64,000 nt of DNA from Bacteroidales bacterium (GCA_009877105.1 WXFD01000011.1:46485-110484), one strand, 5' to 3'; numbered from the stretch's first letter, positions 6,001 to 62,849 are shown. A program made the numbers and translations. Notes: a model not told the origin generated them from the sequence alone.

Positions 6001-9000
6001 CACGCAGCCTGATCCGCTTTCGGCAGCAATTGTGTCAGATAACATAACCTGCAATGGAGCCAATGATGGCAGGATAGAAATCAGCGGCGCCGCGGGTGGC
6101 TCAGGGGCTTACCAATATTCCATCACCGGCGGATCGGCATGGCAAAGCTCCGGTATCTTCAATTATCTGAGCCCCGGCACTTACAATGTAAGGTTGAGAG
6201 ATGCTGCAAACATTACATGTGAGATTACCCTTGATGATGCACTGGTGATCACTCAGCCCGCCAGGCTGACGGCTGTGGTAAGCAGTTCAAATGTAACATG
6301 CAATGGCGGTAATGATGGTTCAATAACCATAACATCTCCGGCTGGAGGTTATAATATTTATGAATACAGCATTGACGGCGGCATAAGTTGGGACGGAATT
6401 ACTTCATTTACCGGTCTTGCCCCGGGATTTTACAATGTCCAGATGCGTGACGCGGCTCACCCGGCCTGTGTTGTTACCCTCAATGGTTCAGTCAGGATTA
6501 CCGAGCCGCCGGTACTCTCGGCAAGCGTCACTCAGACAAACATTACATGTCACGGGGCAGGCGACGGCATTATAACAATCAGCTCGCCTGCGGGAGGCCA
6601 TGGCGCTTATGAATACACTGTTACAGGAGGAACGCCCTGGCGGACAACCGGCACTTTCAGCAATCTTGGCCCGGGCAGCTATGATGTCAGGATCCGCGAT
6701 GCCGTAAATCAAACATGTGAGATTCCGCTTGGCACCCTGACCATAACCGAACCAGCGGCGCTTACTGCAACCGTGACATCAGTGGATATCAGCTGCTTCG
6801 GAGCCAATGACGGATCGATATCGGTTACATCCCCATCGGGAGGCTATGGAACATATCAGTACAATCTGAACGGAAGCACCTCCTGGCAGGTATCCGGAAA
6901 CTTCACCAACCTCGCTCCGGATACATATGTTGTCAGGATGAGGGATGCCGCCAATCCGGCATGCGAGATCACATTAACTCCTGATCCGGTGATATCGGAG
7001 CCCGGTATTCTGGCTGCGACCATCAACGGAACTAACGTGAGCTGTTTCGGAGGCGGTGACGGATCAATTACCATCAACAATGCAACGGGCGGATCGGGGA
7101 ATTACGAATACAGCATCAATGGCGGCGGTTCATGGAATGCCACGGGCATATTCACTAACCTCATTGCCGGAGCATATAACATACTTATCAGGGATGCTTC
7201 GCACCCGGCATGTATTATTGTTCTTAATAACGCTTATCTGATAACCCAGCCGTCATTGCTTTCGGCAACGGTAAGCAAGACAGAAGTGTCGTGTCACGGC
7301 TTCAACGACGGGACCATAAGCATCACTTCCCCGGCAGGCGGATATGGTACATACGAGTATTCAATAGATGGCGGCCTTAGCTGGCATGCATCCGGATTCT
7401 TTGACCATCTTACCCCTGGCACCTACGATGTAAGGATGAGAGATGAGGCTCATCATGGCTGCGCAGTGATCCTCTATCCAAACCTGCTGATCACCGAGCC
7501 GATCCGGCTTTCATTGTCAACGACCGGCGATGTGGTGCTTAACTGTTTTGGCGACAATAATGGCATGGGCACATTTTATGCCTCGGGCGGAACAATGCCC
7601 TACACTTTCATTGTTGACAATCAGGCGGGAGCCACCGTGGCTGGTCCTGGATTTAACTCGCAGACCTTCTTCAGCGCCAGTGCGGGGGTTGTCAATGTTA
7701 CCGTGGTTGATGCCAACGGATGCTCTGAAAGTGCCTCCATCCAAATCACCCAGCCCGATGAACTGCTTCCCGGTTCGATTGGCGACGATCAGATTGTATG
7801 CAGCGGCGATATACCCGCCGCTATCCAGGAACTGACCCCGGCAACGGGAGGTCCTGGAGCCAGGGTGTTCCAGTGGCAGTCGTCAACAAGTGCAACCGGA
7901 CCTTTCGTCAATATTGCCGGCGCCAATGGCAATGATTACACACCAACGACTGGTGCCACCTACACCCAGTATTACAGGAGAATGGTAACCTCCGGCACAT
8001 GCATGCCCGGGTACAGCAACGTGGTCGGGGTGTTTGTTAACCCCAGGCCAGTCGCCTTCCTTACCGGTGGCGGTACCATTTGCCCGGGAGAAAACGCTGT
8101 TATCCGAATAACAATGCCAGCCGGAACAGGACCGTTCACGGTGGAAATAGACGGGCTGGGAACTATAAATAATTATAACAGCGGTGATGATATAACGGTC
8201 AGTCCTGCTGCCACAACTACCTACAGCCTGGTAAGCGTGATCGATGCAAACAACTGCGAGGTTGTTGCACCGTCGCCAAACCTTAGTGGCACGGCTACCG
8301 TGACCGTGAGCGATCTGCCGCTAATAACTTTATTCACCCCGCCGGATCCGGTTTGCGAATTCTCGCTTGCCTCGTTCAGAGTGACGGCCACAGGCACCAA
8401 CCTTACTTACCAGTGGTATGTCGATGATGGAAATTCAATCAGCCCGGTAAGTGACGGCGGAACATATTTTGGAGCGTTAACGCCTACTCTTCAGATATTT
8501 AATGCTGTGAGAAGTATGGACGGAAATATCTATCACGTGGCAGTCACGGGCTGCGGAACCACTGTCACTTCATCAGATATAGTCCTGACTGTGAATACCG
8601 CTCCCGAGATCACTCTTCATCCCAGGGATATTACCGTGTGCCTTGGCCAGGATGCCGTGCTGGAGGCAGATGCAACGGGCACAGGTATTACCTGGCAATG
8701 GTTGGTGAACAGGGGCTCTGGTTTCGTACCGGTAACTGATGATTCAAATTTCAGCGGTTCTCAATCCAATATACTTACCATCACTGATGCCCGGTCGTCC
8801 TTCAATGGCTGGATCTTCAGGGCTGTTGCAAGTGGAGTCTGCGGTGTTCCTGTAAACACCAACTTTGCTGTTCTCAGGGTAATCAATCCACCGGAGGTGA
8901 CAACTCATCCTAACCCGGTAGCGGTTTGTGAGGACAGTCCCGCGTCGTTCCTGGGTAATGGCAGGGGGTATACCACTATGCAATGGCAGGTTAATACCGG

Positions 9001-11005
9001 AGGCGGATGGACCGACCTGAGCGATGGAACGGATTATATTGGTACCGGAACACAGCAGCTTGTAATTTTAAATACCCCTGTCGCGATGAACGGTAACCGT
9101 TACAGGCTGGCGCTTGTTACATCCTGCGCGGTGGTATATACCAATCCGGCCACACTGACCGTGAATGCAAACCCGGTCGTTGACTTCAGCGGTATAAGCC
9201 CGATGAATGCCTGCGGCGGTGATCCGGTCACTCTTGACGGCAATCCCACCGGCGGTTCAGGAAGCTACACGCAGCACCGGTGGACAGGCGACGTGGGCCC
9301 GTTGAACAATTATTTCGTTCAGTCGCCTGTATTCAGGCCGTTCATTTCCGGAACCTACGACCTTAATTACAGGGTCACCGACAGCAACGGGTGCACTGCG
9401 GATGATGACCTGAGGATCATAGTCGACAGTCCGTCGGCCCAGTTCAGCTATGACGTTCCCAGCGGCTGTTCACCACTTACAGTCAGGTTTACAAAGGATA
9501 TGACCGGCATTGATGAATGGTGGTGGGATTTTGATGACGGCACGCCGGTTGAATCAACTGAAGCCAGTCCGGTTCACGTGTTTATCAACAATACTCCCGG
9601 TGCAATCCGGTATTATAACGTCACCCTGAGGGTAAGGTCTGCGGGGAACTGTTTTGCCGAATACAAGGCAACGATAACGGCGTACCCGGCAGTTGATGCA
9701 ACCTTCACGCCTGATAATTCAGTTATCTGCAGCGGCAGCTCCATTACTTTCACGGCAGCGACCGGAGCATACAGATATTTCTGGGATTACGGCGATGGCT
9801 CATCAGGTTATGGCACCCACTCGGCAAGACACTCGTATACCAATACCGGCACGACGCCCGAGGTACATACGGTTACCCTCACCACCTATACGTTGAACAA
9901 CTGTACCGATGTACAAACCTATGATATCACCGTGATGCCGGTACCGGTCCCGCAGTTCACCGCTGATCCATGGACACAGGTATTCAAAACTACCGGTAAC
10001 CCGGTGATATTTACCAATACAACAAATGCAGGTACCTGGAACTGGTTGTGGAGATTCGGGGATGGCACCACGTCGACAGAAATGAATCCGCACCATAATT
10101 ATACTCAGATCGGGGACTACAATGTGACCCTGATTGCCGGCAATGCCAGCTGCACCGACAGTGTGAAGCACAGCGTGAGTGTTCTGCCCCCGGCTCCGGT
10201 GGCCGATTTCGACTCCATACCATCGGGATGTGCGCCGCTGTTTGTGAACATCAGCAACACTTCGCTGAACACCGATCTTCCCGGCACCACCTATCACTGG
10301 GATTTCGGTGACGGGAGCACTTCGACTGCAAAGAATCCGACCTATACATACTTCACCCCAGGTTCATACACCGTGCGACTGTATGTTGTCGGTCCGGGCG
10401 GCACATCAGATTATAGCCAGGCAGTTCACGCCCATCCGTCACCCAAGGCATATTTCGAGATCACACCGCCCCAGGTTTACGCAAACGACAAGAACGTTCG
10501 TTGCTTCAATCTCAGCCAGGGTGGCAGCACTTATCTCTGGGATTTCGGGGATGGCGAAACATCGACTGAAGCTGAACCAGTTCATAAGTACATGAAGGAA
10601 GGAGTGTATGACATCTCCCTCACTGTAACTTCGGCCAATGGCTGTACCGATCAGTACATACTTTCACCTGCAGTTACGGTACTTCCTGTCGGTGAACTAA
10701 GATATCCCACAGTCTTTATCCCCAACAAGACGGGTCCGATTGAAAGATCCGATCTGCCCACGGGCGGTCTCGAGACCGATCAGTTCTTCTATCCCCCGAT
10801 AAGACAGCTGGTCCTTGACTATAAACTGCAGATCTTCAACAGATGGGGTGTACTGATATTTGAGACACATGACATCAATACCCCGTGGAACGGCTATTAT
10901 AAGGGTGAATTGTGTCCGCAGGGAGTGTACGTATGGCTTGTGGAAGGCAAGTTTGCTGACGGGAAGCCTTACAAGAAAGCCGGTAATATAACATTGCTGC
11001 ATTGA
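2..11005 (+). CDS. Giant (>3660 aa) repeat-rich SprB-like cell-surface adhesin, T9SS cargo; 5' end cut by window edge
   Basis: One uninterrupted ORF. The frame is open from nt 2, with no stop before the ATG at 17. The first residues begin mid-repeat (DLAPLDNTVCSD matches the later EPVLADLNTTICSD) and there is no signal peptide. The body consists of tandem repeat families, PKD motifs (WDFGDGSTS..NPTYTY) and a C-terminal T9SS sorting domain. Confidence 0.9.
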   Translation, partial: GTGPWMTPAHSFNINDIPDLAPLDNTVCSDAPSAITFSISNAGPTITGLTYNITSINMNGLVPSAGSPATGTGLAAAIISDDAYTNKTSGDVNVIYAVVPVSSQGCIGAQENVTLTVMPEPVLANLSTPKCSDEALGFNLSLASGSSPAASYNITAINSNGLTASAGSPATGSNLPANVIADDAWTNTTGSPVNVVYSIVPVGVNGCPGDTYTMTITINPEPVLASLVQPVCSDQPLGFSLATAAGSVAAATYNIISINSNGLTASAGSPAPGTGFAANVIADDAWTNTTADPVDVVYTVVPVSASGCEGNAGTITITVNPEPVLADLNTTICSDAPLNFNLATAAGSVAAATYNITAINSNGLTASAGAPAVGNGLSANVIADDAWRNTTPHAVNVVYTIVPVSSSGCPGNPVNMTIRVNPEPVLATTGKEVCSREPLNVNLAVNPGGVAAASYNIISINANGLVPSAGSPAAGNGLPANEIADDAWINTTSAIVNVVYRVAPLSADNCEGNPVDITFAVKPEPVISPNQTVNVCSGNPLDYPIALDNFTNPGAGVTFTWNTPVLNPADPAFTGGNPRNTASSANITDTFVNTLGIIGTATYTVTPYYNGCAGQPVDIVIRVGSEPVLDPGLDDFACSNDAIGLVLREAAGSVAPSHYNIISVNMETGLSAASTNAIVPNDNAPATYLSGDIFENKTGVDKTVTYRVQPVLAPDCFGDPVDVVMTIRPQPVIVPGQVKPVCSGVTIGKEIFLIPVNTPAGVRFNWSAPAISDGSVQGSAGSGVEADPAGTVHINDVIRNYSSAAITATYRVTPVSAEGCRGEEVPVIITINPEPLPKPISGRADLCAGESAPVVYNVTPVGGSSFHWTVDPAVGTKTFDFNTNAIMITAATAAGTGNISVYETNSLGCPGAPFTLPVRVWDSPDPENITGEQTVCAYSTHTYSVTHRPGSVYSWTLPGGAALVGNPSGNSIQVVFGNVGGTILVRETNIAGCITDHDPLAVTVNPQPTANITNGGTMCDGGTRALTVSFIGTAPFSFTYAINGTPLAPISTSDNPYILNATLAGTYSVVNVTDNTGCTGPGSGTATITYFPKPTGIISGTAELCRGSQATITMTFTGVPPYTFTYTDGTTPVTVTNHPNSVYTANVSPSVSSTYTLVSLSDGNNCDGVLSGQATINVNQPPSLTLTGTDLICHNVPTGAVDLTITGGTSPFGISWTGPNGFTSTAEDISGLNEGYYAVTVSDSKGCHATANITIMQPRPLYAAVDRTNVTCYGADDGTITISGSDGGSGFYEYSIDGGIAWSNDVTYTDLAPGTYVVMIRDLVNPTCMLTLNPGLQITGPPILSGTVGKTDITCHGSHDGTITISNPAGGYGTYQYSHNGGADWQDSPLFTNLSAGSYSMVIRDRANPLCRMDLGPVVINEPDALAATVNSTDATCFGANNGTITISGATGGYGVYEYSINGGASWQASNTFPNLAPGTYNVRMHDRANPACMIIINSSLVITEPAILSATVARTNVTCNGANDGTITITNPLGGYGTYEYTVDGGSVWQSPGTFTGLAPGYYNVKIRDAANVTCEITLRPALQITEPAVLSASVASVNVTCNGADDGRITITNPLGGSGSYEYTVHGGPPWQPSGIFNGLAPGTYDVRIRDAANPLCVTTLNGTLVITEPLPLDATLTSTMISCFGANNGIIAISNPEGGSGTYEYTVNGGTNWSNSGNFTGLTPGIYNVIMRDAVHKTCEHVLNSALVITQPAVLAANVAYTNVTCFGGADGTITITNPTGGYGTYQYTVNGGGSWQSSGSFTGLGQGTYNVQIRDEAHPGCVIVLNNALVITQPAILRATITTTMVTCFGANNGIITITNPLGGSGSYEFSNDGGTHWQASGIFAGLAPGSYEVRIRDAANPLCEIVLNPGVSVTEPAELNAVVTVVNITCSGANNGRILISNPTGGYGTYDYSIDGGIGWQATGTFTGLSPATYDVRIRDRANPLCVVTLPAATITQPDPLSAAIVSDNITCNGANDGRIEISGAAGGSGAYQYSITGGSAWQSSGIFNYLSPGTYNVRLRDAANITCEITLDDALVITQPARLTAVVSSSNVTCNGGNDGSITITSPAGGYNIYEYSIDGGISWDGITSFTGLAPGFYNVQMRDAAHPACVVTLNGSVRITEPPVLSASVTQTNITCHGAGDGIITISSPAGGHGAYEYTVTGGTPWRTTGTFSNLGPGSYDVRIRDAVNQTCEIPLGTLTITEPAALTATVTSVDISCFGANDGSISVTSPSGGYGTYQYNLNGSTSWQVSGNFTNLAPDTYVVRMRDAANPACEITLTPDPVISEPGILAATINGTNVSCFGGGDGSITINNATGGSGNYEYSINGGGSWNATGIFTNLIAGAYNILIRDASHPACIIVLNNAYLITQPSLLSATVSKTEVSCHGFNDGTISITSPAGGYGTYEYSIDGGLSWHASGFFDHLTPGTYDVRMRDEAHHGCAVILYPNLLITEPIRLSLSTTGDVVLNCFGDNNGMGTFYASGGTMPYTFIVDNQAGATVAGPGFNSQTFFSASAGVVNVTVVDANGCSESASIQITQPDELLPGSIGDDQIVCSGDIPAAIQELTPATGGPGARVFQWQSSTSATGPFVNIAGANGNDYTPTTGATYTQYYRRMVTSGTCMPGYSNVVGVFVNPRPVAFLTGGGTICPGENAVIRITMPAGTGPFTVEIDGLGTINNYNSGDDITVSPAATTTYSLVSVIDANNCEVVAPSPNLSGTATVTVSDLPLITLFTPPDPVCEFSLASFRVTATGTNLTYQWYVDDGNSISPVSDGGTYFGALTPTLQIFNAVRSMDGNIYHVAVTGCGTTVTSSDIVLTVNTAPEITLHPRDITVCLGQDAVLEADATGTGITWQWLVNRGSGFVPVTDDSNFSGSQSNILTITDARSSFNGWIFRAVASGVCGVPVNTNFAVLRVINPPEVTTHPNPVAVCEDSPASFLGNGRGYTTMQWQVNTGGGWTDLSDGTDYIGTGTQQLVILNTPVAMNGNRYRLALVTSCAVVYTNPATLTVNANPVVDFSGISPMNACGGDPVTLDGNPTGGSGSYTQHRWTGDVGPLNNYFVQSPVFRPFISGTYDLNYRVTDSNGCTADDDLRIIVDSPSAQFSYDVPSGCSPLTVRFTKDMTGIDEWWWDFDDGTPVESTEASPVHVFINNTPGAIRYYNVTLRVRSAGNCFAEYKATITAYPAVDATFTPDNSVICSGSSITFTAATGAYRYFWDYGDGSSGYGTHSARHSYTNTGTTPEVHTVTLTTYTLNNCTDVQTYDITVMPVPVPQFTADPWTQVFKTTGNPVIFTNTTNAGTWNWLWRFGDGTTSTEMNPHHNYTQIGDYNVTLIAGNASCTDSVKHSVSVLPPAPVADFDSIPSGCAPLFVNISNTSLNTDLPGTTYHWDFGDGSTSTAKNPTYTYFTPGSYTVRLYVVGPGGTSDYSQAVHAHPSPKAYFEITPPQVYANDKNVRCFNLSQGGSTYLWDFGDGETSTEAEPVHKYMKEGVYDISLTVTSANGCTDQYILSPAVTVLPVGELRYPTVFIPNKTGPIERSDLPTGGLETDQFFYPPIRQLVLDYKLQIFNRWGVLIFETHDINTPWNGYYKGELCPQGVYVWLVEGKFADGKPYKKAGNITLLH
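50..1570 (+). repeat. About 5 tandem 101-aa (303-bp) repeats inside the adhesin gene
   Basis: The unit EPVLAxL..CSDxPLGFNLAxAAGSVAAATYNIxxINSNGLTASAGSPAxGxGxxANVIADDAWTNTTxxPVxVVYxIVPVSxxGCxG..ITxNP restarts at nt ~358, 661, 964, 1267 and 1570. Long stretches are identical or nearly identical at DNA level, e.g. gatgatgcctggaccaataccac at ~546 and ~850. Confidence 0.85.
3780..7510 (+). repeat. About 15 tandem 83-aa (249-bp) SprB-type repeats, with degenerate copies flanking at ~3550 and ~7510-7750
   Basis: The recurrent unit is LxAxVxxTNVTC[FNHY]GAxDGxITIxNPxGGxGxYEYSxxGGxxWQxSGxFTGLAPGTYxVxIRDAANPxCxxxLNxxLVITEP. The spacing between the conserved Cys codons is 249 nt (e.g. ~3812, ~4064, ~4313). 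Confidence 0.85.
9430..10690 (+). other. Array of 5 PKD-like domains within the adhesin
   Basis: There are five occurrences of the PKD signature: WWDFDDGTP, FWDYGDGSSG, WRFGDGTTSTEMNPHHNY, WDFGDGSTSTAKNPTYTY and WDFGDGETSTEAEPVHKY. Each is followed by Y.V.L-type strands. Confidence 0.8.
10700..11002 (+). other. T9SS type-B (gliding motility-associated, CHU_C-like) C-terminal sorting domain
   Basis: The C-terminal ~100 aa read FIPNK....DQFFYP...LQIFNRWGVLIFE...PWNGYYKGELCPQGVYVWLVEGKFADGKPYKKAGNITLLH. This matches the known pattern F.PNGDG.ND.F....I.NRWG..V......W.G......P.GVY.Y........KG.V.L. Confidence 0.8.
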
Positions 11006-12990: not shown

Positions 12991-13620
12991 ATGATGAAAA
13001 AGAAATATGTCGCAATAATTATTAGCATCCTTTTTAATATTCCTTTGTCTGCACTGACAAACCAAGCAAATGACACATCTATGATTGATTTTTCTTTATA
13101 TTATTTTGTTGACTTGTCAGATACTTATGGCGGAGGTGAAATTTTTTCAGGAGAAATTGGTTTTTCCCGTTCATGGTACGGAGCGTGTTTGGGATATGGC
13201 CATTTTCAATCACAGTCTACCTTTATCTTAAAAGTTCCAGTTGAGAATCCAGATGGCCAAATAGGTATACCCTTTGACGAAATGGCGATTATGAAAAACT
13301 CCTCTTTATCCTTAAAAATTCTTCCCATAAGGACATCTTGGATTAATGCGGAATTAATTTTTGGGATTGCTTTTGCAAAAGCTGAATGGTCATGCTATAA
13401 AAGTGTGGATTATAGTTACAGTATTGTTGAAAATAGGTTTACTCAACTAATAAGAGATTATCAATTGATTAAAAGTAAACATTTTGGTTATCAGGTTGGA
13501 TTAAATATAGTTTTATGTCCTTTGAAATTTGCTGATTTTAAATTAAGTGCAAGGATGCAAGATTTAAATCGGGGAGGCACTTTCTTTTTTGTGGGTGGAG
13601 GGATAAGCTTAAAAATTTAA
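12991..13620 (+). CDS. Hypothetical small outer-membrane beta-barrel-like protein (209 aa), AT-rich gene
   Basis: N-terminal signal peptide (MMKKKYVAIIISILFNIPLSA), alternating hydrophobic/aromatic beta-strand-like pattern, Gly/aromatic-rich segments. No family recognised. Confidence 0.55.
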   Translation: MMKKKYVAIIISILFNIPLSALTNQANDTSMIDFSLYYFVDLSDTYGGGEIFSGEIGFSRSWYGACLGYGHFQSQSTFILKVPVENPDGQIGIPFDEMAIMKNSSLSLKILPIRTSWINAELIFGIAFAKAEWSCYKSVDYSYSIVENRFTQLIRDYQLIKSKHFGYQVGLNIVLCPLKFADFKLSARMQDLNRGGTFFFVGGGISLKI

Positions 13621-13720: not shown

Positions 13721-14296
13721 ATGAAGATATTTACATTTTTATTTTGTTTTTTCACAATGATCTCTTGGAACCTCCATTCTCAGGATAAAAAACTGACATT
13801 AAAAACCGGTGTCGGTTACTATACCGATGTTATGACCTGGCCAGATGGCCCTATAATTTGGCTCGAAGGAGGTTACAGATTCCAGACGGATTTTTACCTG
13901 AACACCCGTCTTTCTATGGCAACAATAGACTGGGAAATAAATAATGAGACTTTTTCCGGTTATAAGACTATTTCCTTGAGACAAATGCTAGATGTTACCT
14001 TCTCCCGACCGCTGCGAATTGCTGATAATCATTTTCTGGAGCCAGGATTAGGATTTAAACTTAAACGTGAATACCATTTGCTTCCCGATGTTTCATTGGA
14101 GGAAATATCCGGTCAATTATATCTCAGTACAAATTATAGTTACATCTTTTACGAAATTGGTTTCACTGCAAATATCGACTATTACTACCGGTTCAGTTCC
14201 GGATTTTTCCTGGGTTTGCGGGCTGATACCAATGTTATATGGGCCCTCGGTTTTGAGGGACTTACCATATCCCCCCTGTTCGGATTCAGGTTCTGA
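13721..14296 (+). CDS. Hypothetical small outer-membrane beta-barrel protein (191 aa), AT-rich gene
   Basis: Signal peptide MKIFTFLFCFFTMISWNLHSQ, alternating-strand pattern, and a terminal LFGFRF with C-terminal Phe typical of BAM-dependent barrels. Confidence 0.6.
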   Translation: MKIFTFLFCFFTMISWNLHSQDKKLTLKTGVGYYTDVMTWPDGPIIWLEGGYRFQTDFYLNTRLSMATIDWEINNETFSGYKTISLRQMLDVTFSRPLRIADNHFLEPGLGFKLKREYHLLPDVSLEEISGQLYLSTNYSYIFYEIGFTANIDYYYRFSSGFFLGLRADTNVIWALGFEGLTISPLFGFRF

Positions 14297-14441
14297 TTTA
14301 TGAATGATACCGCGGGAACTTCAGATCAGGTAATTTTTGTTTATTGATCCCTCAGGAGAACCATTCAGATCCACTGAGGTTATTTCTTGATAAGCCGATA
14401 ATCCCTGATCTGTCGGTTGCCTCTGTCCGGCCAGGCCGCTA

Positions 14442-14624
14442 CACCGCCGGATTCAGCATGCTGCAATGATTATTTTGAAGTGTATCTTCCTGCGATCCAA
14501 CCTTTATTTAAAACTTATGGCTTACGGATCACCGGAAAGCTAGCTCTGAGAGAGCGTAGACATTAATAACCCCCGGCGCCAGCCGGGGGGCAAGTCACCA
14601 AAGAAAAGGAGCCCGGAAAAGACA
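14442..14624. repeat. Copy A of a duplicated non-coding module (conserved block - variable ~100 nt - conserved hairpin block)
   Basis: Block 1 is caccgccggattcagcatgctg (14442-14463). Block 2 is cccccggcgccagccggggggcaagtcaccaaagaaaaggagcccggaaaagaca (14570-14624) and contains an 8-bp GC hairpin. Confidence 0.7.
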
Positions 14625-14700
14625 ACCGCTCCTGTTTTTCGACGTTTGCGCTAAGGCCATTTCCCGCTCCAAAAAACAGGAGCGGTTCGCGCCTTTTCCG
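14614..14700. other. 87-nt extended hairpin (8 + 16 bp helices) in non-coding DNA
   Basis: cggaaaag(14614-21)/cttttccg(14693-700) and aaccgctcctgttttt(14624-39)/aaaaacaggagcggtt(14672-87) are perfect complements. They are separated by a 2/5-nt internal loop and a 32-nt apical loop. Confidence 0.7.
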
Positions 14701-14711
14701 CTCTGCCCGCG

Positions 14712-14885
14712 CACCGCCGGATTCAGTATGCTGGTATTGCGACAGGTATTTGTTTTTCCATTAAACTGTTGGCGGCTCTTGAAATTACATATTACGCCCC
14801 TTCAGGGCTTATTGTCACTGGTGATCCTTTCCCCCGGCTGTCGCCGGGGGGCAAGTCACCAAAGAAAAAAGCCCGGAAAAGGACA
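14712..14885. repeat. Copy B of the duplicated non-coding module
   Basis: Block 1 is caccgccggattcagtatgctg (14712-14733). Block 2 is cccccggctgtcgccggggggcaagtcaccaaagaaaaaagcccggaaaaggaca (14831-14885). The stem matches copy A but the loop differs (tgtc vs gcca). The ~95-105 nt between the blocks are unrelated in the two copies. Confidence 0.7.
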
Positions 14886-15184
14886 CTGTGCATCAGGCGG
14901 AAAACGAAAAGATATCCCCGGCAGCAAATCAGCACGCCACCGGGGATCAGGGTCAGGGCGACCAATCGTTCGGGGCGAACGAAGACCAGACTTTCAGAAG
15001 AAATGCAGCGAGTGGTCCGAATTAGTTGAAGGAAAATAATCTTTAGATGAATCCCCCGGGTGAGGATAATAAACAGGCAGGTTTTTATCAACATGCATGG
15101 CAGACAATATTTAACGTAATGCGACTTTCAGCTGCAATATACAAAAAACCGGGGCCAGAAAATCTTTTTCCTGTAAAAAAAAAT

Positions 15185-15382
15185 TCAGGCCGGAACATAA
15201 CTGCGCCTTGTCCTGCAGTAACGGATCAGATATCCCTCCTGCCTGAGTTCGTGGATCAATCTTTTAACAGTTCTGATGCTTACATCTAGCAGTATTGCCA
15301 GCTCTTCAGGAGTTCCCGTACCCTTTAGCGAAATGAGACGAAGAATCCTGATCTTCATATTTTCTTTCTGAAAACGTGTCAT
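15185..15382 (-). CDS. Small winged-helix/HTH DNA-binding protein (65 aa from the Met at 15382; the ORF is open to 15496)
   Basis: ILRLISLKGTGTPEELAILLDVSIRTVKRLIHELRQEGYLI is a typical HTH_11/DeoR-N-type helix-turn-helix. The start is uncertain (15496, 15382 or 15358). Confidence 0.6.
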   Translation of the reverse strand: MTRFQKENMKIRILRLISLKGTGTPEELAILLDVSIRTVKRLIHELRQEGYLIRYCRTRRSYVPA

Positions 15383-15523
15383 GATACTGGAGTAATTGAG
15401 ACAGGTTGACTTTCGATATAAACTTAATAAAATTTTGCTAAAACTCCAAAAGTTTAGCCAGCAAAATTCAGTGTTTACAGGGAAAAGCGATGACAAAATT
15501 ATCGAAAATCGGGTACAGGGAAT

Positions 15524-17317
15524 TTAGGGATTGGAGCATTCACCAAACCTTGATGCCTGCCTGGTATACATCCTGTGGTAGATCCCCCGGGCTTTCATCA
15601 GTTCGTCGTGGGTCCCGGTCTCGGAAATCTCTCCGTTGCTGATAACGATTATCCTGTCAGCAAATGAAATATTTGTCAGCCTGTGACTTATGAGTATCGT
15701 TGTGCGTCCCCTGACGACTTCCCTGAACCGGCTGAATATTTCATACTCGGTGTCTGAATCAAGGGCGCTTACAGGCTCGTCGAGTATCAGGACGGGAGCA
15801 TTGCGGAAAAGAGCCCTGGCCAGGGCCAGCTTCTGCCACTCCCCCCAGCTTAGCTCACGGCTGTCGTCAAAGAGGTTGCCGATAACGGTATCATAACCTG
15901 CAGGCAGATTGTTTATCATATCATGAACATGCGAAACGGCAGCGGCTTTTCTGATTCTGGTTTCAGCGTCGGCAGCTTCGAGATCTCCTATCCTAATATT
16001 CTCACCGGCGCTCATGTTGTAAAGCATGAAATCCTGAAATACGACTGAAAACATCTTTCTGTAGGCGTCCGGATCAATATTCCTGATATCTGTGCCGTCG
16101 TATCTTATTACACCCGAATCGGGATCGTACAGCCTGGTGATAAGCCTTACAAGCGTGCTTTTGCCGGCGCCGTTGGGCCCGGCCAGGGCTACAATTTCGC
16201 CTCGTCCAACAGTAAATGATACATTTTTCAGGGTATGACTCGTGTTGCCGGGATATGTGAATGACAGATCCCTGACCTCGAGGCCTGTCCTGAGAATGGA
16301 AGCGGGCATCTGCGGTTCGGCCGCCTTTATGCTTTCCTTGAGATTCAGAAACTCAAAGGTGTCGCCGATGAAAAGACTGTCTTCATATAATCCGGCAAGT
16401 GAACCAAACAGATCCCTGATATATGACATGCCCTGCCTGAAGGCAAGAATGAACATTGCCATCTGACCGAGGGTCAGGTTTCCACTTGCCGCACGGCCCG
16501 TAACATACACCAGGAGTAACAGCAGTGCAAGCGCTTTAACCGTGTCTGACAGGATCCCGATCAGTGTCCTTTTCCTGATTATCCTGAGCTCCTCTTCCTT
16601 CTGCCTTGCAAATGCAGTTTTAAAAAGTGAAATGAAATAATTGCCCGTTCCAAACAATCTCAGCTCCCTTGATGGCCTGTCGCCCGTGAGCAGCCAGCTG
16701 AAGTAAGCGGATTTCCTTGCGTCAGGCGTGCGGCTGCGCTGAAAATTGTACAGTATGTCTGCGAAATGAAGCCGCAGCCAGATCCCGGGTACATTCACCG
16801 CAAGCAGCAGCACAACCAGGCCCCAGTGCAGGGAGAAAAGCACGCCTGCCATGAGAAGCAGCGAGACAGCACCCCTGAACATCGAAATGATATTGTTCAA
16901 TATGCTGTTCGGCCTCCATGGAGCTTCAGAAGTTGCCCTTGAAAGACAATCATAATAGGCGGGATGCTCGAAATTGATCAGATCGAGCCTTACCGATTTG
17001 GAATGAAGCAGGCCGAACATGTACGATTCGAGCTTTATCGACTGGTTGCGGCGGATATAATTACCTGCCCCGGTCGATACTTCGTCAAGGAAATAAATCA
17101 CCACAACGGCAATGATCAGCCCGATAATCTCCGGTATCCCCGAACCGGCAGACACGGTTTCCGTTATCCTGTCGATTAAAAGCCTGATCAGGAAAATCAA
17201 TGCGAGTGGAAGAAAACTCTGAAGAAGGGAAATCAGAATGTTTGCTGCAGCCCAGCCCGGTGCACTTTTCCATACAAGCCCGAGCGAATCCCTGAACAAT
17301 CTGGCCTTTTTATTCAT
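15524..17317 (-). CDS. ABC exporter, fused permease/ATPase half-transporter (597 aa)
   Basis: N-terminal ~300 aa multi-TM domain. Walker A GPNGAGKST, signature LSWGEWQKLALARA, Walker B VLILDEP, H-loop ISHR. No C39 peptidase domain. Confidence 0.9.
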   Translation of the reverse strand: MNKKARLFRDSLGLVWKSAPGWAAANILISLLQSFLPLALIFLIRLLIDRITETVSAGSGIPEIIGLIIAVVVIYFLDEVSTGAGNYIRRNQSIKLESYMFGLLHSKSVRLDLINFEHPAYYDCLSRATSEAPWRPNSILNNIISMFRGAVSLLLMAGVLFSLHWGLVVLLLAVNVPGIWLRLHFADILYNFQRSRTPDARKSAYFSWLLTGDRPSRELRLFGTGNYFISLFKTAFARQKEEELRIIRKRTLIGILSDTVKALALLLLLVYVTGRAASGNLTLGQMAMFILAFRQGMSYIRDLFGSLAGLYEDSLFIGDTFEFLNLKESIKAAEPQMPASILRTGLEVRDLSFTYPGNTSHTLKNVSFTVGRGEIVALAGPNGAGKSTLVRLITRLYDPDSGVIRYDGTDIRNIDPDAYRKMFSVVFQDFMLYNMSAGENIRIGDLEAADAETRIRKAAAVSHVHDMINNLPAGYDTVIGNLFDDSRELSWGEWQKLALARALFRNAPVLILDEPVSALDSDTEYEIFSRFREVVRGRTTILISHRLTNISFADRIIVISNGEISETGTHDELMKARGIYHRMYTRQASRFGECSNP

Positions 17318-17351
17318 CTGGAATGAAAACAGGTTCCCAATTTACTTAAAA

Positions 17352-17477
17352 TTAACTTATACGGCCAGACCTTTCCAGTACTTCCATAATTTTCATATGC
17401 TGCCGTAAACCAGGCATGATCGGGAATGTATCAATAGCAATTGCCCGAGTGACATATATCATTTGTTTAGTTGCCAT
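17352..17477 (-). CDS. Candidate 41-aa small ORF (possible precursor peptide), unverified
   Basis: Hand translation of the minus strand gives MATKQMIYVTRAIAIDTFPIMPGLRQHMKIMEVLERSGRIS-stop. It is co-directional with the operon, lies 104 nt after the peptidase stop and 34 nt before the ABC start, and ends in Ser. There is no homology support. Confidence 0.2.
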   Translation of the reverse strand: MATKQMIYVTRAIAIDTFPIMPGLRQHMKIMEVLERSGRIS

Positions 17478-17581
17478 ATATCAATCATCTGTAGATTCTC
17501 AGAATAGCTGAGCTGGTTTGAGCCGGCTGGTTCCTGTATGGGGCCCGGCTTGATATGCGTTGAAATCGGAGCGGATCCGGC

Positions 17582-18064
17582 TCAGCTTTGAGCTTTCCGG
17601 ATCTTGTTTTTTAATGATCTTCTGATCCTCATGATCGTGGCTGAAAGTCGATTCAGAAAATAGTCCGGTTCAGGCTTCATGTAGCGCCTCAGAGCAACCG
17701 GCGTTCCTTCCGGGTATTCGATCCCGGTGACCTTTCCGACAATCAGATTTTCCGGCAGTGCTTCATCTTCGTACAGGTTGCAATCGCCTCTTGTAACAAC
17801 AAACACCTGGTTGTTCTTCTCAAATTTCCTTACTATCCTGTGCATGACAAAGCCCGGATCAAGTCTCCAGACCACAATATCGCCTTTTTTAAGGGCCGGG
17901 ATATCGGCTGGTTCGATATAGACAAGCGAGCCGGGTTTTATAGATGGATACATGCTGAAGCCTTCGGCCCGCAGCTTAAGTGTTTTACCCTCCGAAAGCA
18001 GTGTCAGCCCGACCTCGTTCAGCGGTAAAAGATCCTGTTTATTCATTCCTGAGGAGATATTCAA
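17582..18064 (-). CDS. S26/S24-superfamily peptidase, ER/archaeal (SipW-like) Ser/His type, apparently soluble (154-160 aa)
   Basis: The boxes are GFSMYPSIKPGSLV (nucleophile Ser), GDIVVW, FVMHRIV (His in place of the bacterial Lys) and VVTRGDCN. They correspond to the SGSMEP / HR(V/I) / TKGDNN pattern of SipW/Sec11-type signal peptidases. There is no hydrophobic N-terminal anchor. The alternative start at 18046 overlaps the kinase stop. Confidence 0.7.
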   Translation of the reverse strand: MNISSGMNKQDLLPLNEVGLTLLSEGKTLKLRAEGFSMYPSIKPGSLVYIEPADIPALKKGDIVVWRLDPGFVMHRIVRKFEKNNQVFVVTRGDCNLYEDEALPENLIVGKVTGIEYPEGTPVALRRYMKPEPDYFLNRLSATIMRIRRSLKNKIRKAQS

Positions 18065-18926
18065 TGATGCTTCTGTCGGGTCTGAATGACAGTGTGGCGA
18101 TTGGTACTTTCGAGCACATCATTGAAACAGAGCCAAGAAACCTTGCTATCATATCGGGGCTGTAGTTATGCTGAATGCTGTTTGCAACAACATAGGAGAC
18201 TGCCGAGGCTTCCCTTAACGGGTATAATTCATTTTCGGAACCGTGTTCAATGAAGAATATTTTGGTAAGCGGTGCTTCCCTTGGGCCGTCATTCCTGTTG
18301 ACAGGGGTGTTGTACATCCTGTATACGCCGTCGGTGTTCCTTATTATCAGACGGTCATCGTGGATTACCTGTGCGCCAACGTTATCCCAGAGCTTTGACA
18401 TGGTGGTCTTGCCTTTTCCGGAGATTCCGCTGAAAAGATAACCCTTTCCGCCATAATAAACTCCCGAGGCATGGATCATTATGTCCGCCTTTATTGCCGT
18501 CAGATAGTAAAGGATAAGCCCGTCGAGGGGGTATTCAAGCGGATCGGTTTCAAAGCCGGCATTCTCGAGATAAAGATCCCATTCCCTGAGGGTGAGGGAA
18601 AATTTCAGCGTGGCCCTTTTGTTGCTTATAGACTCCGGGAAATTGGTCGTCAGCAGCATGTCGCCGTTTTCCTTGTATACGCTCCAGAAATTTTCGCATC
18701 TGCTGAGCTTGTAACCCTTTATTTCCACGAGGTAGGGAGCTACGAACAACCGTTCCGAGTCCTCACCCGGCCTGAAGATCCCATGGTGCACCCTGATCCT
18801 TACGTCATAATCCGAACGCGGGATAATGTTAAGATGAAAACGTTCATCAGGAACCAGCTCCGGTCCGTCGTCATACGATTCCAGCCTTATATTGTATCCG
18901 GCAATATTCAGATTATACTCTCTCAT
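18039..18926 (-). CDS. HPr kinase/phosphorylase-like (HprK C-terminal domain) putative peptide kinase (295 aa)
   Basis: The C-terminal half reads MIHASGVYYGGKGYLFSGISGKGKTTMSKLWDNVGAQVIHDDRLII. This gives the beta-strand-His, the G-x-S-G-x-G-K-[ST] P-loop and the downstream DD that are characteristic of the HprK catalytic domain. The N-terminal ~140 aa are unrecognised. Confidence 0.7.
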   Translation of the reverse strand: MREYNLNIAGYNIRLESYDDGPELVPDERFHLNIIPRSDYDVRIRVHHGIFRPGEDSERLFVAPYLVEIKGYKLSRCENFWSVYKENGDMLLTTNFPESISNKRATLKFSLTLREWDLYLENAGFETDPLEYPLDGLILYYLTAIKADIMIHASGVYYGGKGYLFSGISGKGKTTMSKLWDNVGAQVIHDDRLIIRNTDGVYRMYNTPVNRNDGPREAPLTKIFFIEHGSENELYPLREASAVSYVVANSIQHNYSPDMIARFLGSVSMMCSKVPIATLSFRPDRSIIEYLLRNE

Positions 18927-18984
18927 AAGGAGTCTGATTTATAAACCTTTTCCTGATTAACGGAATTATGACGGGAATATTATT

Positions 18985-19272
18985 TTATAACCTGATGATG
19001 AGATAATTACTCATGTTTTCCATAAACGCCAATACATCTCGCGTTGCGGTTTCGGATTCAATATCAAATTCTTCCGTGAATCTTTCCACAATTTCCCGAA
19101 TATTTTTTTCCCCGTCTATCAGTTCCCAGATGAAGGCGCCTGATTCGTTGAGGGTAAACAACCTGTTCATATCTGCTATATTGTTGGCCAGGGGAACCAG
19201 AACGTATTCGTTCCCCGTCTTTCTGGTTACAATATCGGGAGAATGGGAGACAACTGAATCCAGGTCGATCAT
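18985..19272 (-). CDS. PqqD-family protein (RiPP recognition element-like), 95 aa
   Basis: The size and pattern ..EYVLVPLANN......LFTLNESGAFIWELIDGEKNIREIVERFTEEFD...ETATRDVLAFMENM are typical of PqqD/RRE winged-helix proteins. Confidence 0.75.
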   Translation of the reverse strand: MIDLDSVVSHSPDIVTRKTGNEYVLVPLANNIADMNRLFTLNESGAFIWELIDGEKNIREIVERFTEEFDIESETATRDVLAFMENMSNYLIIRL

Positions 19273-19290
19273 AATAATTTAAATATAAAT

Positions 19291-19298
19291 CAAATGTA
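19291..19298 (-). promoter_or_regulatory. Bacteroidota -7 box (TAcaTTTG) for the PqqD-led operon
   Basis: The reverse complement of caaatgta is TACATTTG, matching the TAnnTTTG consensus. It lies 19 nt upstream of the ATG at 19272. Confidence 0.5.
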
Positions 19299-19343: not shown

Positions 19344-21485
19344 ATGGGAAGGAAAACAAGGGGAAGAAGGAAGAAGGGAGATATTCCGGTCGAGGCAACT
19401 AAAAAACTGGTACGGGAGATACTTGAAAAAGATCCCAGGCAGGGTTTTAATTACAGGCAGATAGCAAAGAAGCTCAATTTCAGCGATACTGATAAAAAGC
19501 AATTGATCAGGGAGATATTGGAAGAGCTTTCGGCAGACGGATCGGTTGTTGAGGTACAGCAGGGGAAATACAGGTCGGCGCGGATACCAAAAAGAGGATC
19601 CATAACGGGGACGGTGGATATGACAAGAATGGGATATGGTTTTGTCGTTTCCGACGACATTGAGGATGATGTATTTGTTACCTCAAAGAACCTTAAAACA
19701 GCTTTGCATGGCGATAAGGTGAAGGTTCTTCTGTTTGCCGGGAAAAAGGGATCGAGGCCCGAGGGAGAGGTGATTGAGATAATTGAAAGATGGCGTACAT
19801 CATTTGTGGGCACTGTTGAGGTGATGCCGAACTTCGCTTTTCTTGTTCCCGATAATAAGAATATGCCTTTCGATCTTTTCATTCCTGCCTCGAAACTTAA
19901 TGGTGCGAAACAGGGGCAGAAGGCAGTTGCAAAAGTCATCGACTGGGATCCCAAATCAAGAAACCCTGTGGCCGAGATAATTAACGTCCTGGGTTATCCC
20001 GGGCTGAATGAGACGGAGATGCATGCCATTCTTGCAGAATTCGGACTTCCGGCTCATTTTACCGAAGAGGTTGAAAGAGATGCTGAAAAAATCCCTGGTC
20101 AGATTACGGAGGCTGATATACAGTCAAGGCGCGACTTCAGGAATGTTCCCACTTTTACTATAGATCCGGCTGATGCCCGCGATTTTGATGATGCCATTTC
20201 GCTGAGGAGGCTGGAGAATGGAAACTGGGAGGTGGGTATCCATATTGCCGATGTCACCCATTATGTGAAACCGGGAACTCTTACGGAAGAAGAGGCCAGA
20301 CAACGGGCCACATCAGTTTATCTGGTTGACAGGGTGGTTCCCATGCTGCCGGAGAGACTCTCGAACGAAATTTGTTCGCTCAATCCTTCAGAGGACAAGC
20401 TTACATATTCAGCTGTTTTTGAATTGAATGATAAATCGGAAGTTATCGATGAATGGTTTGGGCGGACAATCATCAACTCCGACAGGAGGTTCTCATACAA
20501 GGAGGCCCAGCTGGTTATCGATACCGGTGAGGGGGAGATGTGTGATCAGCTCCTGCCGCTGAATCGCCTTGCTCAGCAGCTCCGCTCTCGAAGATTATTG
20601 CTGGGAGCCTTTTCTTTTGAAAGGGTGGAGGTTCAGTTCGACCTCGACAGTGAAGGCAAGCCCCTGGCAATTAAATTCCGCGACATGGGCACTGCCAACC
20701 AGCTTATCGAGGAATTTATGCTTCTTGCCAACAGGAGGGTGGCGGAATTCATCGGGAAAAAACTCAGGGCACAGCCTTTCGTTTACAGGGTCCATGATAA
20801 ACCCGATCAGGAGAAGATCAGCAATTTCAGGCATTTCATAACCCGGTTCGGGTATAAATTGCCTGAAAATATCGGCAATCTGCCACAGGCAATGAACAGG
20901 TTGTTCAGGGAAATTGCCGGAAAGGATGAACAGAACATCATCGAAACAATAGCTCTCAGGGCCATGGCCAAAGCGGTTTATTCAACAAAGAATATCGGGC
21001 ATTACGGGCTGGCCTTTAAATACTATACCCATTTCACCTCTCCCATAAGGCGCTATCCCGACATGATGGTCCATCGCCTTCTTACTGCGTATCTGAATAA
21101 GGAGAACCCTGAAAACCGGAACTCACTTGAAAAACTCTGCGAGCATTCCTCAAAAATGGAGAGGTTCGCAACGGAAGCCGAAAGGGCTTCGATAAAATAC
21201 AAGCAGGTCGAATTTATGAGCGACAAAACCGGACAAATATTCGATGGTGTGATTTCCGGTGTCACTGAATGGGGTATTTATGTTGAGATAATTGAAAACC
21301 AGTGTGAGGGGATGGTTAGTGTTAAAGATCTCAATGATGACTTCTATGAATACGACGAGGAGAATTATTGTCTCAGGGGTCGTTCAGCCGGGCGGACCTA
21401 TACCCTGGGCGACAGGGTTAAGATTGAAGTGGTTCGGGCCGATCTTCAGAAAAAGCAGCTGGATTACAGGCTGATTATTCTGTGA
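19344..21485 (+). CDS. rnr: Ribonuclease R (3'-5' exoribonuclease, RNB + S1 domains)
   Basis: 713 aa. Basic N-terminus, cold-shock-like region, RNB catalytic region (FTIDPADARDFDDAIS, YLVDRVVPMLPE, HYGLAFKYYTHFTSPIRRYPD) and a C-terminal S1 domain. Confidence 0.92.
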   Translation: MGRKTRGRRKKGDIPVEATKKLVREILEKDPRQGFNYRQIAKKLNFSDTDKKQLIREILEELSADGSVVEVQQGKYRSARIPKRGSITGTVDMTRMGYGFVVSDDIEDDVFVTSKNLKTALHGDKVKVLLFAGKKGSRPEGEVIEIIERWRTSFVGTVEVMPNFAFLVPDNKNMPFDLFIPASKLNGAKQGQKAVAKVIDWDPKSRNPVAEIINVLGYPGLNETEMHAILAEFGLPAHFTEEVERDAEKIPGQITEADIQSRRDFRNVPTFTIDPADARDFDDAISLRRLENGNWEVGIHIADVTHYVKPGTLTEEEARQRATSVYLVDRVVPMLPERLSNEICSLNPSEDKLTYSAVFELNDKSEVIDEWFGRTIINSDRRFSYKEAQLVIDTGEGEMCDQLLPLNRLAQQLRSRRLLLGAFSFERVEVQFDLDSEGKPLAIKFRDMGTANQLIEEFMLLANRRVAEFIGKKLRAQPFVYRVHDKPDQEKISNFRHFITRFGYKLPENIGNLPQAMNRLFREIAGKDEQNIIETIALRAMAKAVYSTKNIGHYGLAFKYYTHFTSPIRRYPDMMVHRLLTAYLNKENPENRNSLEKLCEHSSKMERFATEAERASIKYKQVEFMSDKTGQIFDGVISGVTEWGIYVEIIENQCEGMVSVKDLNDDFYEYDEENYCLRGRSAGRTYTLGDRVKIEVVRADLQKKQLDYRLIIL

Positions 21486-24728: not shown

Positions 24729-24770
24729 CACCCACGAATCAAATATTCCTTCCTGTCAGGATCGTTTGAT

Positions 24771-27602
<2,832 letters not shown>

Positions 27603-33744: not shown

Positions 33745-33912
33745 CTGACTAGAGTTTAATTTTACATTAGTACAATGGGAAAAGAGTTTGATTGATTCAA
33801 ATGACAGGATGTCAGCATTTTAGCATTTTTTCCCGTGGTTGCAATCAGCTCAAATCTTTCCACCAGATTTCAGGATGTAAAAGAAATAAAAAAATTCCAG
33901 ATTACAAAACCA

Positions 33913-38823: not shown

Positions 38824-38941
38824 AATATTAAAATCATGAAACCGGCATGATAGGCCACATTGATTACCGTCACAGGTGTAAAAACCTGATTACCGGTTAT
38901 ATGTGGTTCCATCATACTATAAAAATCAAAATAATATTATA

Positions 38942-61200: not shown

Positions 61201-61218
61201 TGTTTTACAATTTATTAG

Positions 61219-62814: not shown

Positions 62815-62849
62815 TTTTCAGGTTGTTTTATTTTTTACTTCAAGTGTAA

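Follow-up and report, generated by a model that had tools for sequence, protein, structure and literature searches.

What does an operon make that joins a peptide-binding protein, a kinase, a peptidase and an exporter, and where does its substrate come from? The question is raised by positions 15185 to 19298 of a 64-kb stretch of a Bacteroidales bacterium (WXFD01000011.1:46485-110484), the whole of which is called the window below. Just as the preliminary description had listed them, five open reading frames (ORFs), all co-directional on the minus strand, were found in this region: a discrete PqqD-type RiPP recognition element (RRE; RiPP, peptide made by the ribosome and modified after translation), a kinase-like protein, an S26 peptidase, an ABC half-transporter and a small helix-turn-helix (HTH) protein (Table 1). 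Judging from sequence comparison and from analogy with an experimentally studied system, the locus is probably a Bacteroidales version of the operons that mature and export linear polyphosphorylated peptides (LPPs), with the gene order B-K-S-D.

LPPs were reported by Popov et al. (Nat Commun, May 2026; PMC13381572) from the genes lppA-K-B-S-D-N of Paenibacillus alginolyticus DSM5050, in a survey that began from archaeal-type signal peptidases adjoining RREs in Bacilli. The conserved set includes an SpI-like peptidase, an MsbA-like transporter and precursors with a YxxPxVLxHQxIxFETxxS leader, which are encoded by one to three genes per cluster and can be up to 200 aa long (PMC13381572). According to the same paper, LppK adds one to four phosphates to core Ser3 in heterologous expression, while LppS takes off the leader, only with LppB presenting the precursor, and is inactive as S29A, H68A or D93A; LppN showed no activity in the heterologous host, and N33/D70 of LppB hydrogen-bond the Pro/Tyr of the YxxP leader motif (PMC13381572). 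The window's pathway had been described beforehand as uncharacterised, which does not hold, since this paper defines the same gene set.

The four proteins and their probable LPP counterparts

One genome per species was scanned, which gave 174 genomes with a relative; the best 80 of these, 55 to 96% identical and all from uncultured Bacteroidales, were analysed. The assignment of the 95-aa protein to the PqqD family was borne out by Pfam (70.8 bits versus a cut-off of 23.4; E=1.2e-19). This RRE is 31% identical to LppB (E=7e-9), and its N42 and D79, which align with LppB N33 and D70, show no variation among clade members (76 of 76). Its dN/dS (ratio of nonsynonymous to synonymous substitution rates) is 0.16 against the relative L006. 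Among NCBIfam models, the best match is the Bacillus-type lasso PqqD chaperone, under its cut-off, and ScmD scores 33.5 bits for a cut-off of 100.

The peptidase carries all three of the boxes read earlier (GFSMYP, HRIV and TRGDCN) and matches the archaeal-type signal peptidase I model TIGR02228 with 69 bits, over the cut-off of 51.85. BLASTP aligns it with LppS (WP_029196374.1) at 38% identity (E=3e-19), placing S31, H69 and D94 on the experimentally essential S29, H68 and D93 of LppS, and the Ser, the His and two Asp residues are invariant in 88 Bacteroidota sequences. It shares the fold and the catalytic motifs of SipW-type signal peptidase I, whereas the membrane anchors of that enzyme have no counterpart here, with no transmembrane-like segment in the window protein (highest 19-residue hydropathy, 0.74). 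The fourth protein consists of ABC_membrane and ABC_tran without C39, so that Pfam agrees with the earlier reading of a 597-aa half-transporter lacking a C39 domain. Its best NCBIfam match is MsbA (289 bits versus a cut-off of 602), MsbA-related models also being at the top; it is 62 to 89% identical across the clade, with a dN/dS of 0.085.

Besides a kinase-like protein that is a candidate for the LppK type, these are the components that the window shares with LPP clusters: a discrete PqqD-fold RRE with the YxxP-binding Asn and Asp, as aligned with LppB; a soluble SipW/archaeal-type Ser/His/Asp peptidase homologous in sequence to LppS; and an MsbA-like ABC exporter, recognized by its ABC Pfam domains and MsbA-type best matches. 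LPP clusters likewise have no lasso cyclase.

The kinase-like protein required a longer analysis. The HprK catalytic pattern noticed earlier is there: the P-loop SGISGKGKTT is followed by HDD(R) 17 residues on, and the P-loop and DD pair are invariant or almost so in the family. An N-terminal beta-rich domain (about residues 1 to 125) precedes the C-terminal kinase domain. Close homologues comprise 1036 proteins at E<=1e-3, all unnamed and from Bacteroidales metagenome-assembled genomes, while the whole family holds more than 10,000 representative sequences clustered at 50% identity. A precomputed Pfam match to ScmC (PF27840) exists on homologues 56 to 96% identical to the window protein. Its best NCBIfam matches are ScmC (TIGR04249, 31.5 bits versus 125) and HprK_rel_B (26.7 versus 200), the HprK-related kinase A and PEPCK models match only below threshold, and the HPr kinase/phosphorylase models TIGR00679 and PF07475 do not match the window protein at all. 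The membership in the TIGRFAM HprK-related kinase A/B families that had been considered is therefore not upheld, nor is that in the ScmC/ScmD equivalogs, all scores being far under the cut-offs, and the protein is a member of no curated equivalog.

Family-wide comparison places the protein more precisely. Of 109 diverse family representatives, 25 to 53% identical to the window protein, 106 match HprK_rel_B and 38 match TIGR00679 HPr(Ser) kinase, all sub-threshold. A broad profile built from these 109 retrieved Lactobacillus casei HprK/P as the top PDB sequence (E=9e-6) and PEPCK as the second, and the HprK/P alignment covers exactly the active-site stretch …HASGV…G.G.LF.G.SG.GKST…DDR…; a narrow-family profile, superseded by the broader one, had reached HprK with E=0.6 only. 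An AlphaFold2 (AF2) model from a 64-sequence alignment has a pLDDT (predicted local distance difference test) of 91.6, and with it Foldseek found 76 PDB matches at E<=1e-3, of which the 50 listed are all PEPCK or HprK/P. It replaced a first model from a shallow alignment (pLDDT 70.6, Foldseek E about 0.02). The N-terminal domain of the model is a beta-rich fold unlike the HprK N-terminal domain. From the broad profile, the family matches and the AF2/Foldseek comparison, we conclude that the protein is modeled as an HprK/PEPCK-fold phosphotransferase with a beta-rich N-terminal domain of its own, for which phosphotransfer is predicted. Thus, of the two profile placements that had been anticipated, the one in PqqD stands, while that in HprK-C fails at PF07475 and is taken over by the HprK/PEPCK fold of the model. 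Compared with HPr kinase/phosphorylase, fold and catalytic motifs are shared, whereas the N-terminal domain is another one, scores stay under the HprK thresholds and there is no phosphotransferase system (PTS) context. The kinase gene has a dN/dS of 0.047, the strongest constraint among the operon genes. In Supplementary Data 2 of the LPP paper, kinases are typed TIGR04249, TIGR04352 or TIGR04355 (PMC13381572), and the window kinase weakly matches the same three models.

ScmC and ScmD belong to the SynChlorMet cassette (ScmC TIGR04249, ScmD TIGR04248, radical SAM enzymes ScmE/ScmF), and the window kinase has ScmC as its best NCBIfam match, while the RRE matches ScmD. Against the models TIGR04248 to TIGR04251, however, the operon reaches only 31.5 bits versus 125 and 33.5 versus 100 and contains no radical SAM gene, the sole one detected in the window being 28 kb off. 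The literature on SynChlorMet and HprK-related terms yielded nothing useful, 'ScmC' standing there for unrelated acronyms; to our knowledge, the cassette itself is uncharacterised. In three relatives (L166:4402-5657, L170:1197-2876 and L171:3826-5198), the kinase-like gene is followed by S26 and is separated from PqqD by a radical SAM/SPASM maturase and by Cys-rich precursors (…YEKPKVTKVELRPEEAALTACK…). They look like SynChlorMet cassettes, but as true ones they were rejected, being far under the equivalog cut-offs.

Inheritance, gene fusions and missing lasso genes

The order IspG, RNase R (divergent), PqqD, kinase, S26, ABC is kept in virtually all sufficiently long loci, and the outer flanks are shared as well: CysS and Met/SAM genes at one end, and genes for outer-membrane and giant adhesin-like proteins at the opposite one. 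Sequence identity of the operon proteins goes in parallel with that of the neighbouring housekeeping proteins. Relative to the closest relative, dN/dS is 0.05 to 0.16 for the operon genes and 0.07 to 0.08 for RNase R and IspG, so that purifying selection on the operon is as strong as on its housekeeping neighbours; no frameshift was seen in clade members. The fixed synteny, the identities tracking those of the neighbours and the housekeeping-like dN/dS together argue that the locus is inherited vertically under strong constraint and is not a mobile secondary-metabolite island. The recurrence of the RRE, HprK-like kinase, S26 and ABC quartet, on which the preliminary description had staked its case, was found in at least 80 species-level Bacteroidales genomes and in many distant metagenomic loci. 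By these comparisons, the system appears to be widespread in Bacteroidota, which is new relative to the LPP paper, where LPPs are stated to be restricted to Bacillota, with a patchy distribution driven by horizontal transfer (PMC13381572).

Two relatives carry an additional gene in this arrangement. In one (L050:7552-7941), a gene of the GxxExxY / PD-(D/E)XK family is inserted between PqqD and the kinase; in the other (L156:3049-4869), a 606-aa membrane protein that looks like a sensor histidine kinase has its gene between RNase R and PqqD, in the opposite orientation.

Gene fusions connect the enzymes with one another. In a sister Bacteroidales clade, kinase and S26 form one polypeptide: all 120 matches listed have the fused length (328 to 562 aa), Pfam records both domains in about 20 of these 120, and one protein is PqqD::kinase::S26. 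The ABC and NTP_transf_5 genes of this clade lie across the same CysS-IspG-RNase R block, on its other side. Among distant metagenomic relatives, at least four loci encode an ABC protein with S26 fused at its N-terminus, and Pfam confirms three of four proteins. Because of the kinase::S26 and S26::ABC fusions, kinase, peptidase and exporter are likely tied functionally into a single pathway. Two Bacteroidales S26::ABC fusions with adjacent RREs, from Paludibacter propionicigenes and a Porphyromonadaceae bacterium, also stand in the supplementary table of the LPP paper, in a network cluster that was left unanalysed there (PMC13381572). That of Paludibacter propionicigenes is WP_013444635.1, and the RRE beside it is WP_013444633.1. 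Such fusions resemble peptidase-containing ABC transporters (PCATs), which have a leader-peptidase domain on the exporter N-terminus; the PCAT domain is a C39 cysteine peptidase, whereas that of the window's relatives is an S26B Ser/His/Asp enzyme, and in the window itself peptidase and exporter are encoded by distinct genes with 264 nt between them. By sequence, the S26::ABC fusion implies that leader cleavage is coupled to export.

A further gene of the pathway seems to have disappeared from the window. Of about 80 clade loci, 28, which are the more divergent ones, have NTP_transf_5 (PF14907, E=3.9e-47), and in those 28 its start overlaps the ABC stop. One further locus (L082) retains only a decayed C-terminal remnant, and tblastn found no match in the window. 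Presence in 28 loci, a remnant in one and no match in the window suggest that the window's sublineage lost an ancestral NTP_transf_5 gene. The family is thus common to LPP clusters and the window's relatives, not to the window.

The same gene content raises the question of lasso peptides. Paeninodin and pseudomycoidin clusters (A, K, C, B1, B2, D, with or without N) resemble the window in a B1-like RRE, an HprK-like kinase and an ABC exporter; their kinase phosphorylates a Ser of the linear precursor, and their NTP-transferase acts on the phosphate. They differ from it in having the macrolactam cyclase C and a transglutaminase-type B2, in place of which an S26B serine peptidase is found here. 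One might regard the window locus as such a cluster in decay, its cyclase and B2 lost, since the best NCBIfam match of the RRE, under cut-off, is the Bacillus-type lasso chaperone and since kinase, NTP-transferase and ABC are typical of these clusters. The Pfam scan, however, detected no Asn_synthase or transglutaminase core in the operon proteins and 30 other window ORFs (the giant ORF 17-11005 and the two outer-membrane-like ORFs 12991-13620 and 13721-14296 lay outside the scan), and no Asn_synthase-like cyclase or B2 family is annotated within 7 to 10 kb of relatives from five clades. This confirms the missing cyclase and B2 protease as far as the scanned window ORFs and the examined relatives go; an adjacent cyclase/B2 pair, which had been named as the mark of a decayed lasso cluster if always present beside relatives, was found beside none of those examined. 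Additionally, none of the genes is broken and all show strong purifying selection, relatives have S26 fused specifically to kinase or exporter, and the cyclase-less LPP architecture is functional (PMC13381572). The idea of lasso decay is thereby largely refuted, and we give it hardly any probability.

Precursor, substrate and rival readings

A RiPP pathway needs a precursor, and none was found near the operon. In the window's clade, no intergenic gap holds a conserved small ORF, and neither a leader-motif regular expression nor a precursor hidden Markov model (HMM) matched an ORF in the window or in loci L001 to L089. Several candidates were rejected. The 41-codon ORF at 17352-17477 has no tblastn match in related loci, including L006 with its 96% identical kinase, and no match to the precursor HMM, and the spacer hosting it is missing in many relatives. 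Recurrent small-ORF clusters in the gaps of about 80 clade loci turned out to be off-frame NTP_transf_5 or conserved DNA palindromes. The gaps between PqqD and kinase and between NTP_transf_5 and HTH, when read directly, contained nothing but AT-rich promoter-like DNA, repeats rich in GC and a stretch that extends the kinase upstream in frame.

Across all loci, the leader expression gave a sole plausible match, in L091, which became the source of a precursor family. It is a 72-codon ORF (L091:7786-8004) between PqqD and kinase with the leader MKKREYIKPIIEQIDID. When metagenomes were scanned starting from distant kinases, another 80 loci were obtained, and about 25 of the 80 have an ORF of 65 to 86 aa between PqqD and kinase. 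In this family the leader reads KK-Y-x-x-P-x-[IL]-E-x-x-x-[LI]-D-x-x-[IV]-x-L, the middle is rich in Pro, and the tail PFGGxxP[DE]Y(xxM) is conserved; the family's carriers are L091, L095, L097, L099-L102, L104, L107, L109, L112, L116-L118, L124, L130, L140, L141, L143, L145 and L153. Some variants (L144:4984-5142 and L159:5407-5589) retain nothing of this but the leader, and their cores are short, acidic and Gly/Pro-rich, with W or G as the last residue. An HMM of 21 sequences recovered 46 ORFs, every one beside a kinase gene, and the protein database contains 127 homologues, all unnamed, with no Pfam or NCBIfam match for the family. In 45 of the 80 distant loci, and in L091, a member of the family sits between RRE and kinase. 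In the 80 distant loci, with counts taken over those that could be judged for each feature, PqqD is upstream of the kinase in 44 of 48, a precursor ORF is present in 36 of 59 and S26 is directly downstream in 31 of 52; ABC occurs in 12 of 33, and NTP_transf_5 in 8 of 33. Two homologues on long contigs show a minimal trio of PqqD, precursor and kinase.

It could be argued from the same findings that the operon has lost its precursor and with it any function, given that the NTP-transferase is gone too and that the spacer between peptidase and ABC is variable. Such an inactive remnant is very improbable: dN/dS is 0.05 to 0.16 for all genes, the catalytic residues are invariant in at least 76 species-level genomes, and the promoter box is conserved. 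Since leader-binding and catalytic residues and the promoter are conserved under strong purifying selection, the sequences indicate that the machinery is almost certainly active, in trans, on a substrate encoded elsewhere.

Based on the above comparisons, the LPP-type pathway could operate as follows. The PqqD-like RRE would capture a ribosomal precursor by its YxxP-type leader motif; the cytoplasmic Ser/His/Asp S26B peptidase would cut the leader off the peptide presented by the RRE; and the MsbA-like ABC transporter would export the linear product. The precursor would lie outside the operon, so that the peptide or protein on which the machinery acts in trans would be encoded elsewhere; the module would be a vertically inherited core-genome locus of this Bacteroidales lineage, and the NTP-transferase, which in related systems decorates the phosphate further, would have been lost in this lineage. 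Phosphorylation, RRE-dependent leader cleavage and export are inferred here by homology to the LPP system, with whose experiments the earlier prediction of a linear phosphorylated, leader-trimmed and exported peptide, with S26 replacing B2, also agrees (PMC13381572).

Several differences from the LPP clusters are apparent. The window belongs to Bacteroidota and the published clusters to Bacillota; its locus is inherited vertically in a housekeeping neighbourhood, whereas LPP genes are spread patchily by horizontal transfer and lie beside capsule loci; and it has neither lppA nor lppN. The kinase::peptidase and peptidase::ABC fusions occur on the side of the window's relatives. The precursors of these relatives carry a YxxPx[IL] leader, as in LPPs, and end in the conserved PFGGxxP[DE]Y, being unrelated to LppA beyond the motif.

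Some of the findings weigh against the LPP-type reading. A precursor gene was found neither in the operon nor elsewhere in the 64-kb window, nor within 8 to 10 kb in about 85 loci from the clade and the fused-gene sister clade, and the precursor family of the distant relatives has only KxYxxPx in common with LppA. The kinase is connected to LppK by its modeled fold and by the shared TIGRFAM typing rather than by a direct alignment, and a phosphorylated product would be known here by homology alone. Meanwhile, the strict vertical inheritance, unlike the patchy clusters of Bacilli, could mean a different role.

Such a different role would follow if the module had been repurposed for housekeeping, with the same four proteins processing and exporting a non-classical substrate, such as the leader at the N-terminus of some larger envelope or secreted protein whose gene lies elsewhere, in a constitutive role. 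The locus is fixed between RNase R/IspG/CysS and the envelope genes in all clade members, the genes of the sister clade are split around the same housekeeping genes, and constraint equals that on the neighbouring essential genes; furthermore, a cis precursor is absent, the NTP-transferase has been lost, and LPP precursors themselves reach 200 aa (PMC13381572), all of which fits this proposal. We nevertheless consider it unlikely, because the YxxP-binding residues are kept in the RRE, distant relatives combine the same enzymes with short, typical RiPP-like precursors, and a candidate protein substrate did not emerge.

With the LPP-type reading preferred, the consequences can be stated in steps. 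LPP-type machinery appears to be common in Bacteroidota and, in one lineage, to be a fixed core-genome component with constraint at the housekeeping level; the founding paper presents LPPs as a patchy family of Bacillota only. The kinase::peptidase and peptidase::exporter fusions speak for modification, cleavage and export as coupled steps in this order. We tentatively suggest, as a possibility that is still rather doubtful, that in a large lineage of uncultured Bacteroidales the LPP-type machine has turned into a housekeeping module with vertical inheritance, its substrate gene being unlinked or replaced by a non-canonical one. If so, phosphorylated exported peptides would have a constitutive physiological role (e.g., in the cell envelope, biofilm or signalling) and not one in conflict or as antibiotics, and the …PFGGxxP[DE]Y peptides would be a second, independent precursor family for LPP chemistry. 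With their conserved C-terminal motif, the relatives' precursors are concrete test substrates, and Paludibacter propionicigenes, a cultured carrier in the supplementary table of the paper (PMC13381572), opens the way to genetics. The precursor-less version also asks how an RRE-dependent pathway finds a substrate encoded in trans.

Layout of the locus and its surroundings

Table 1. Features of the region under study (positions in the 64-kb window).
Feature	Position	Strand	Basis or remark
-7 promoter box, Bacteroidetes-type, TACATTTG	19291-19298	-	18 nt to PqqD start codon
Discrete PqqD-type RRE, LppB-like, 95 aa	18985-19272	-	Pfam PqqD, E=1.2e-19
HprK/PEPCK-fold P-loop kinase-like enzyme (fold from model), LppK-like, 295 aa	18039-18926	-	Pfam ScmC family via homologues
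Soluble archaeal/ER-type (S26B) signal-peptidase-I-like putative leader peptidase, LppS-like, 154 aa	17582-18046	-	TIGR02228
Peptidase-ABC spacer, 264 nt	17318-17581	-	Two boxes and 41-codon ORF
MsbA-like ABC half-transporter, LppD-like, 597 aa	15524-17317	-	ABC_membrane and ABC_tran
Small winged-HTH protein, 65 aa	15185-15382	-	Sub-threshold HTH matches

The divergent spacer between PqqD and RNase R (19344-21485, plus strand) is 71 nt long and holds the TACATTTG box. The -7 box read earlier as TAcaTTTG is thus real, and its position is conserved, only the distance to PqqD having been put at 19 nt instead of the intervening 18. The pattern TAnnTTTG as such is not enriched in the whole window (30 observed versus 39 expected), and in 53 of 64 related loci it stands 16 to 19 nt ahead of the PqqD ATG, a conserved position which makes the box a credible promoter. 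The peptidase most likely starts at ATG 18046, giving 154 aa, and TTG 18064 is a less likely alternative. With the former start, the overlap noted earlier between the kinase stop at 18039 and the start region of the peptidase is 8 nt; the description of the junctions as tight is right for this one and wrong for peptidase and ABC, which are separated by the spacer of Table 1.

That spacer contains two near-palindromic TG[AC]CATATATCA boxes (17450-17461 and 17472-17483), 22 nt apart, which may be an operator or an internal promoter of the ABC gene. Several copies of TTGATATATATCA-like boxes occur in the same spacer solely in the closest relatives, L006 to L009; other relatives have no such spacer, their peptidase and ABC genes overlapping. 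A general operator made of TGATATATATCA boxes was dismissed, these being restricted to the closest relatives.

The small HTH gene exists as described, and its place in a five-gene operon is doubtful. It has weak winged-HTH matches only (HTH_11, 23.4 bits versus a cut-off of 25; MarR-type also sub-threshold), and comparison with relatives puts its start most likely at 15382 (MTRFQKE...). The gene follows ABC or NTP_transf_5 in 58 tabulated sequences of the window's clade and in L156, and it was not found in the fused-gene sister clade. In relatives, it is preceded by a conserved AT-rich promoter-like stretch, and in the window a TAATTTTG box lies upstream of it at 15494-15501. Because of this promoter-like stretch of its own, the gene may stand outside the operon transcript; it is probably a clade-specific neighbour, a regulator with its own promoter that is transcribed separately.

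Directly 3' of the HTH gene, 22 related loci (L044, L050, L054, L055, L057, L058, L065 and others) have the conserved palindrome TGTTATATAACA, which gave spurious 'MLYNI…' ORFs on both strands. In the window, the DNA from HTH to the outer-membrane-like genes (14440-14980) contains GC-rich repeated elements, among them a 55-nt unit (14570-14624 versus 14831-14885, 80% identical), a 22-nt unit at 14442 and 14712, and the inverted arms CCCCCGGC…GCCGGGGG; Tandem Repeats Finder called no array between 14.2 and 15.3 kb. In relatives, the variable gaps are filled with GC-rich repeats of a similar kind.

Farther out, the window begins with a giant ORF of 3662 codons (17-11005, plus strand), whose counterpart in L001 is a 5059-aa protein with SprB, PKD and CHU_C domains that looks like a type IX secretion adhesin; the opposite end of the window (60376-63794) has the genes for GldL, GldM and GldN. 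Three plus-strand ORFs of 890, 621 and 889 aa (36151-38823, 38903-40768 and 53287-55956) have no Pfam match at E<=1e-5, and the last is followed by a gene for a DUF5723 protein. On the plus strand, a SAM-I riboswitch (S box; SAM, S-adenosylmethionine) at 24770-24897 (69 bits) precedes genes for a Cys/Met-metabolism pyridoxal phosphate (PLP) enzyme, homoserine dehydrogenase, MetH and MTHFR. On the minus strand, a SAM-II long-loop riboswitch at 33810-33869 (53 bits) stands before a SAM synthetase gene, so that two different SAM riboswitch classes are found within 9 kb.

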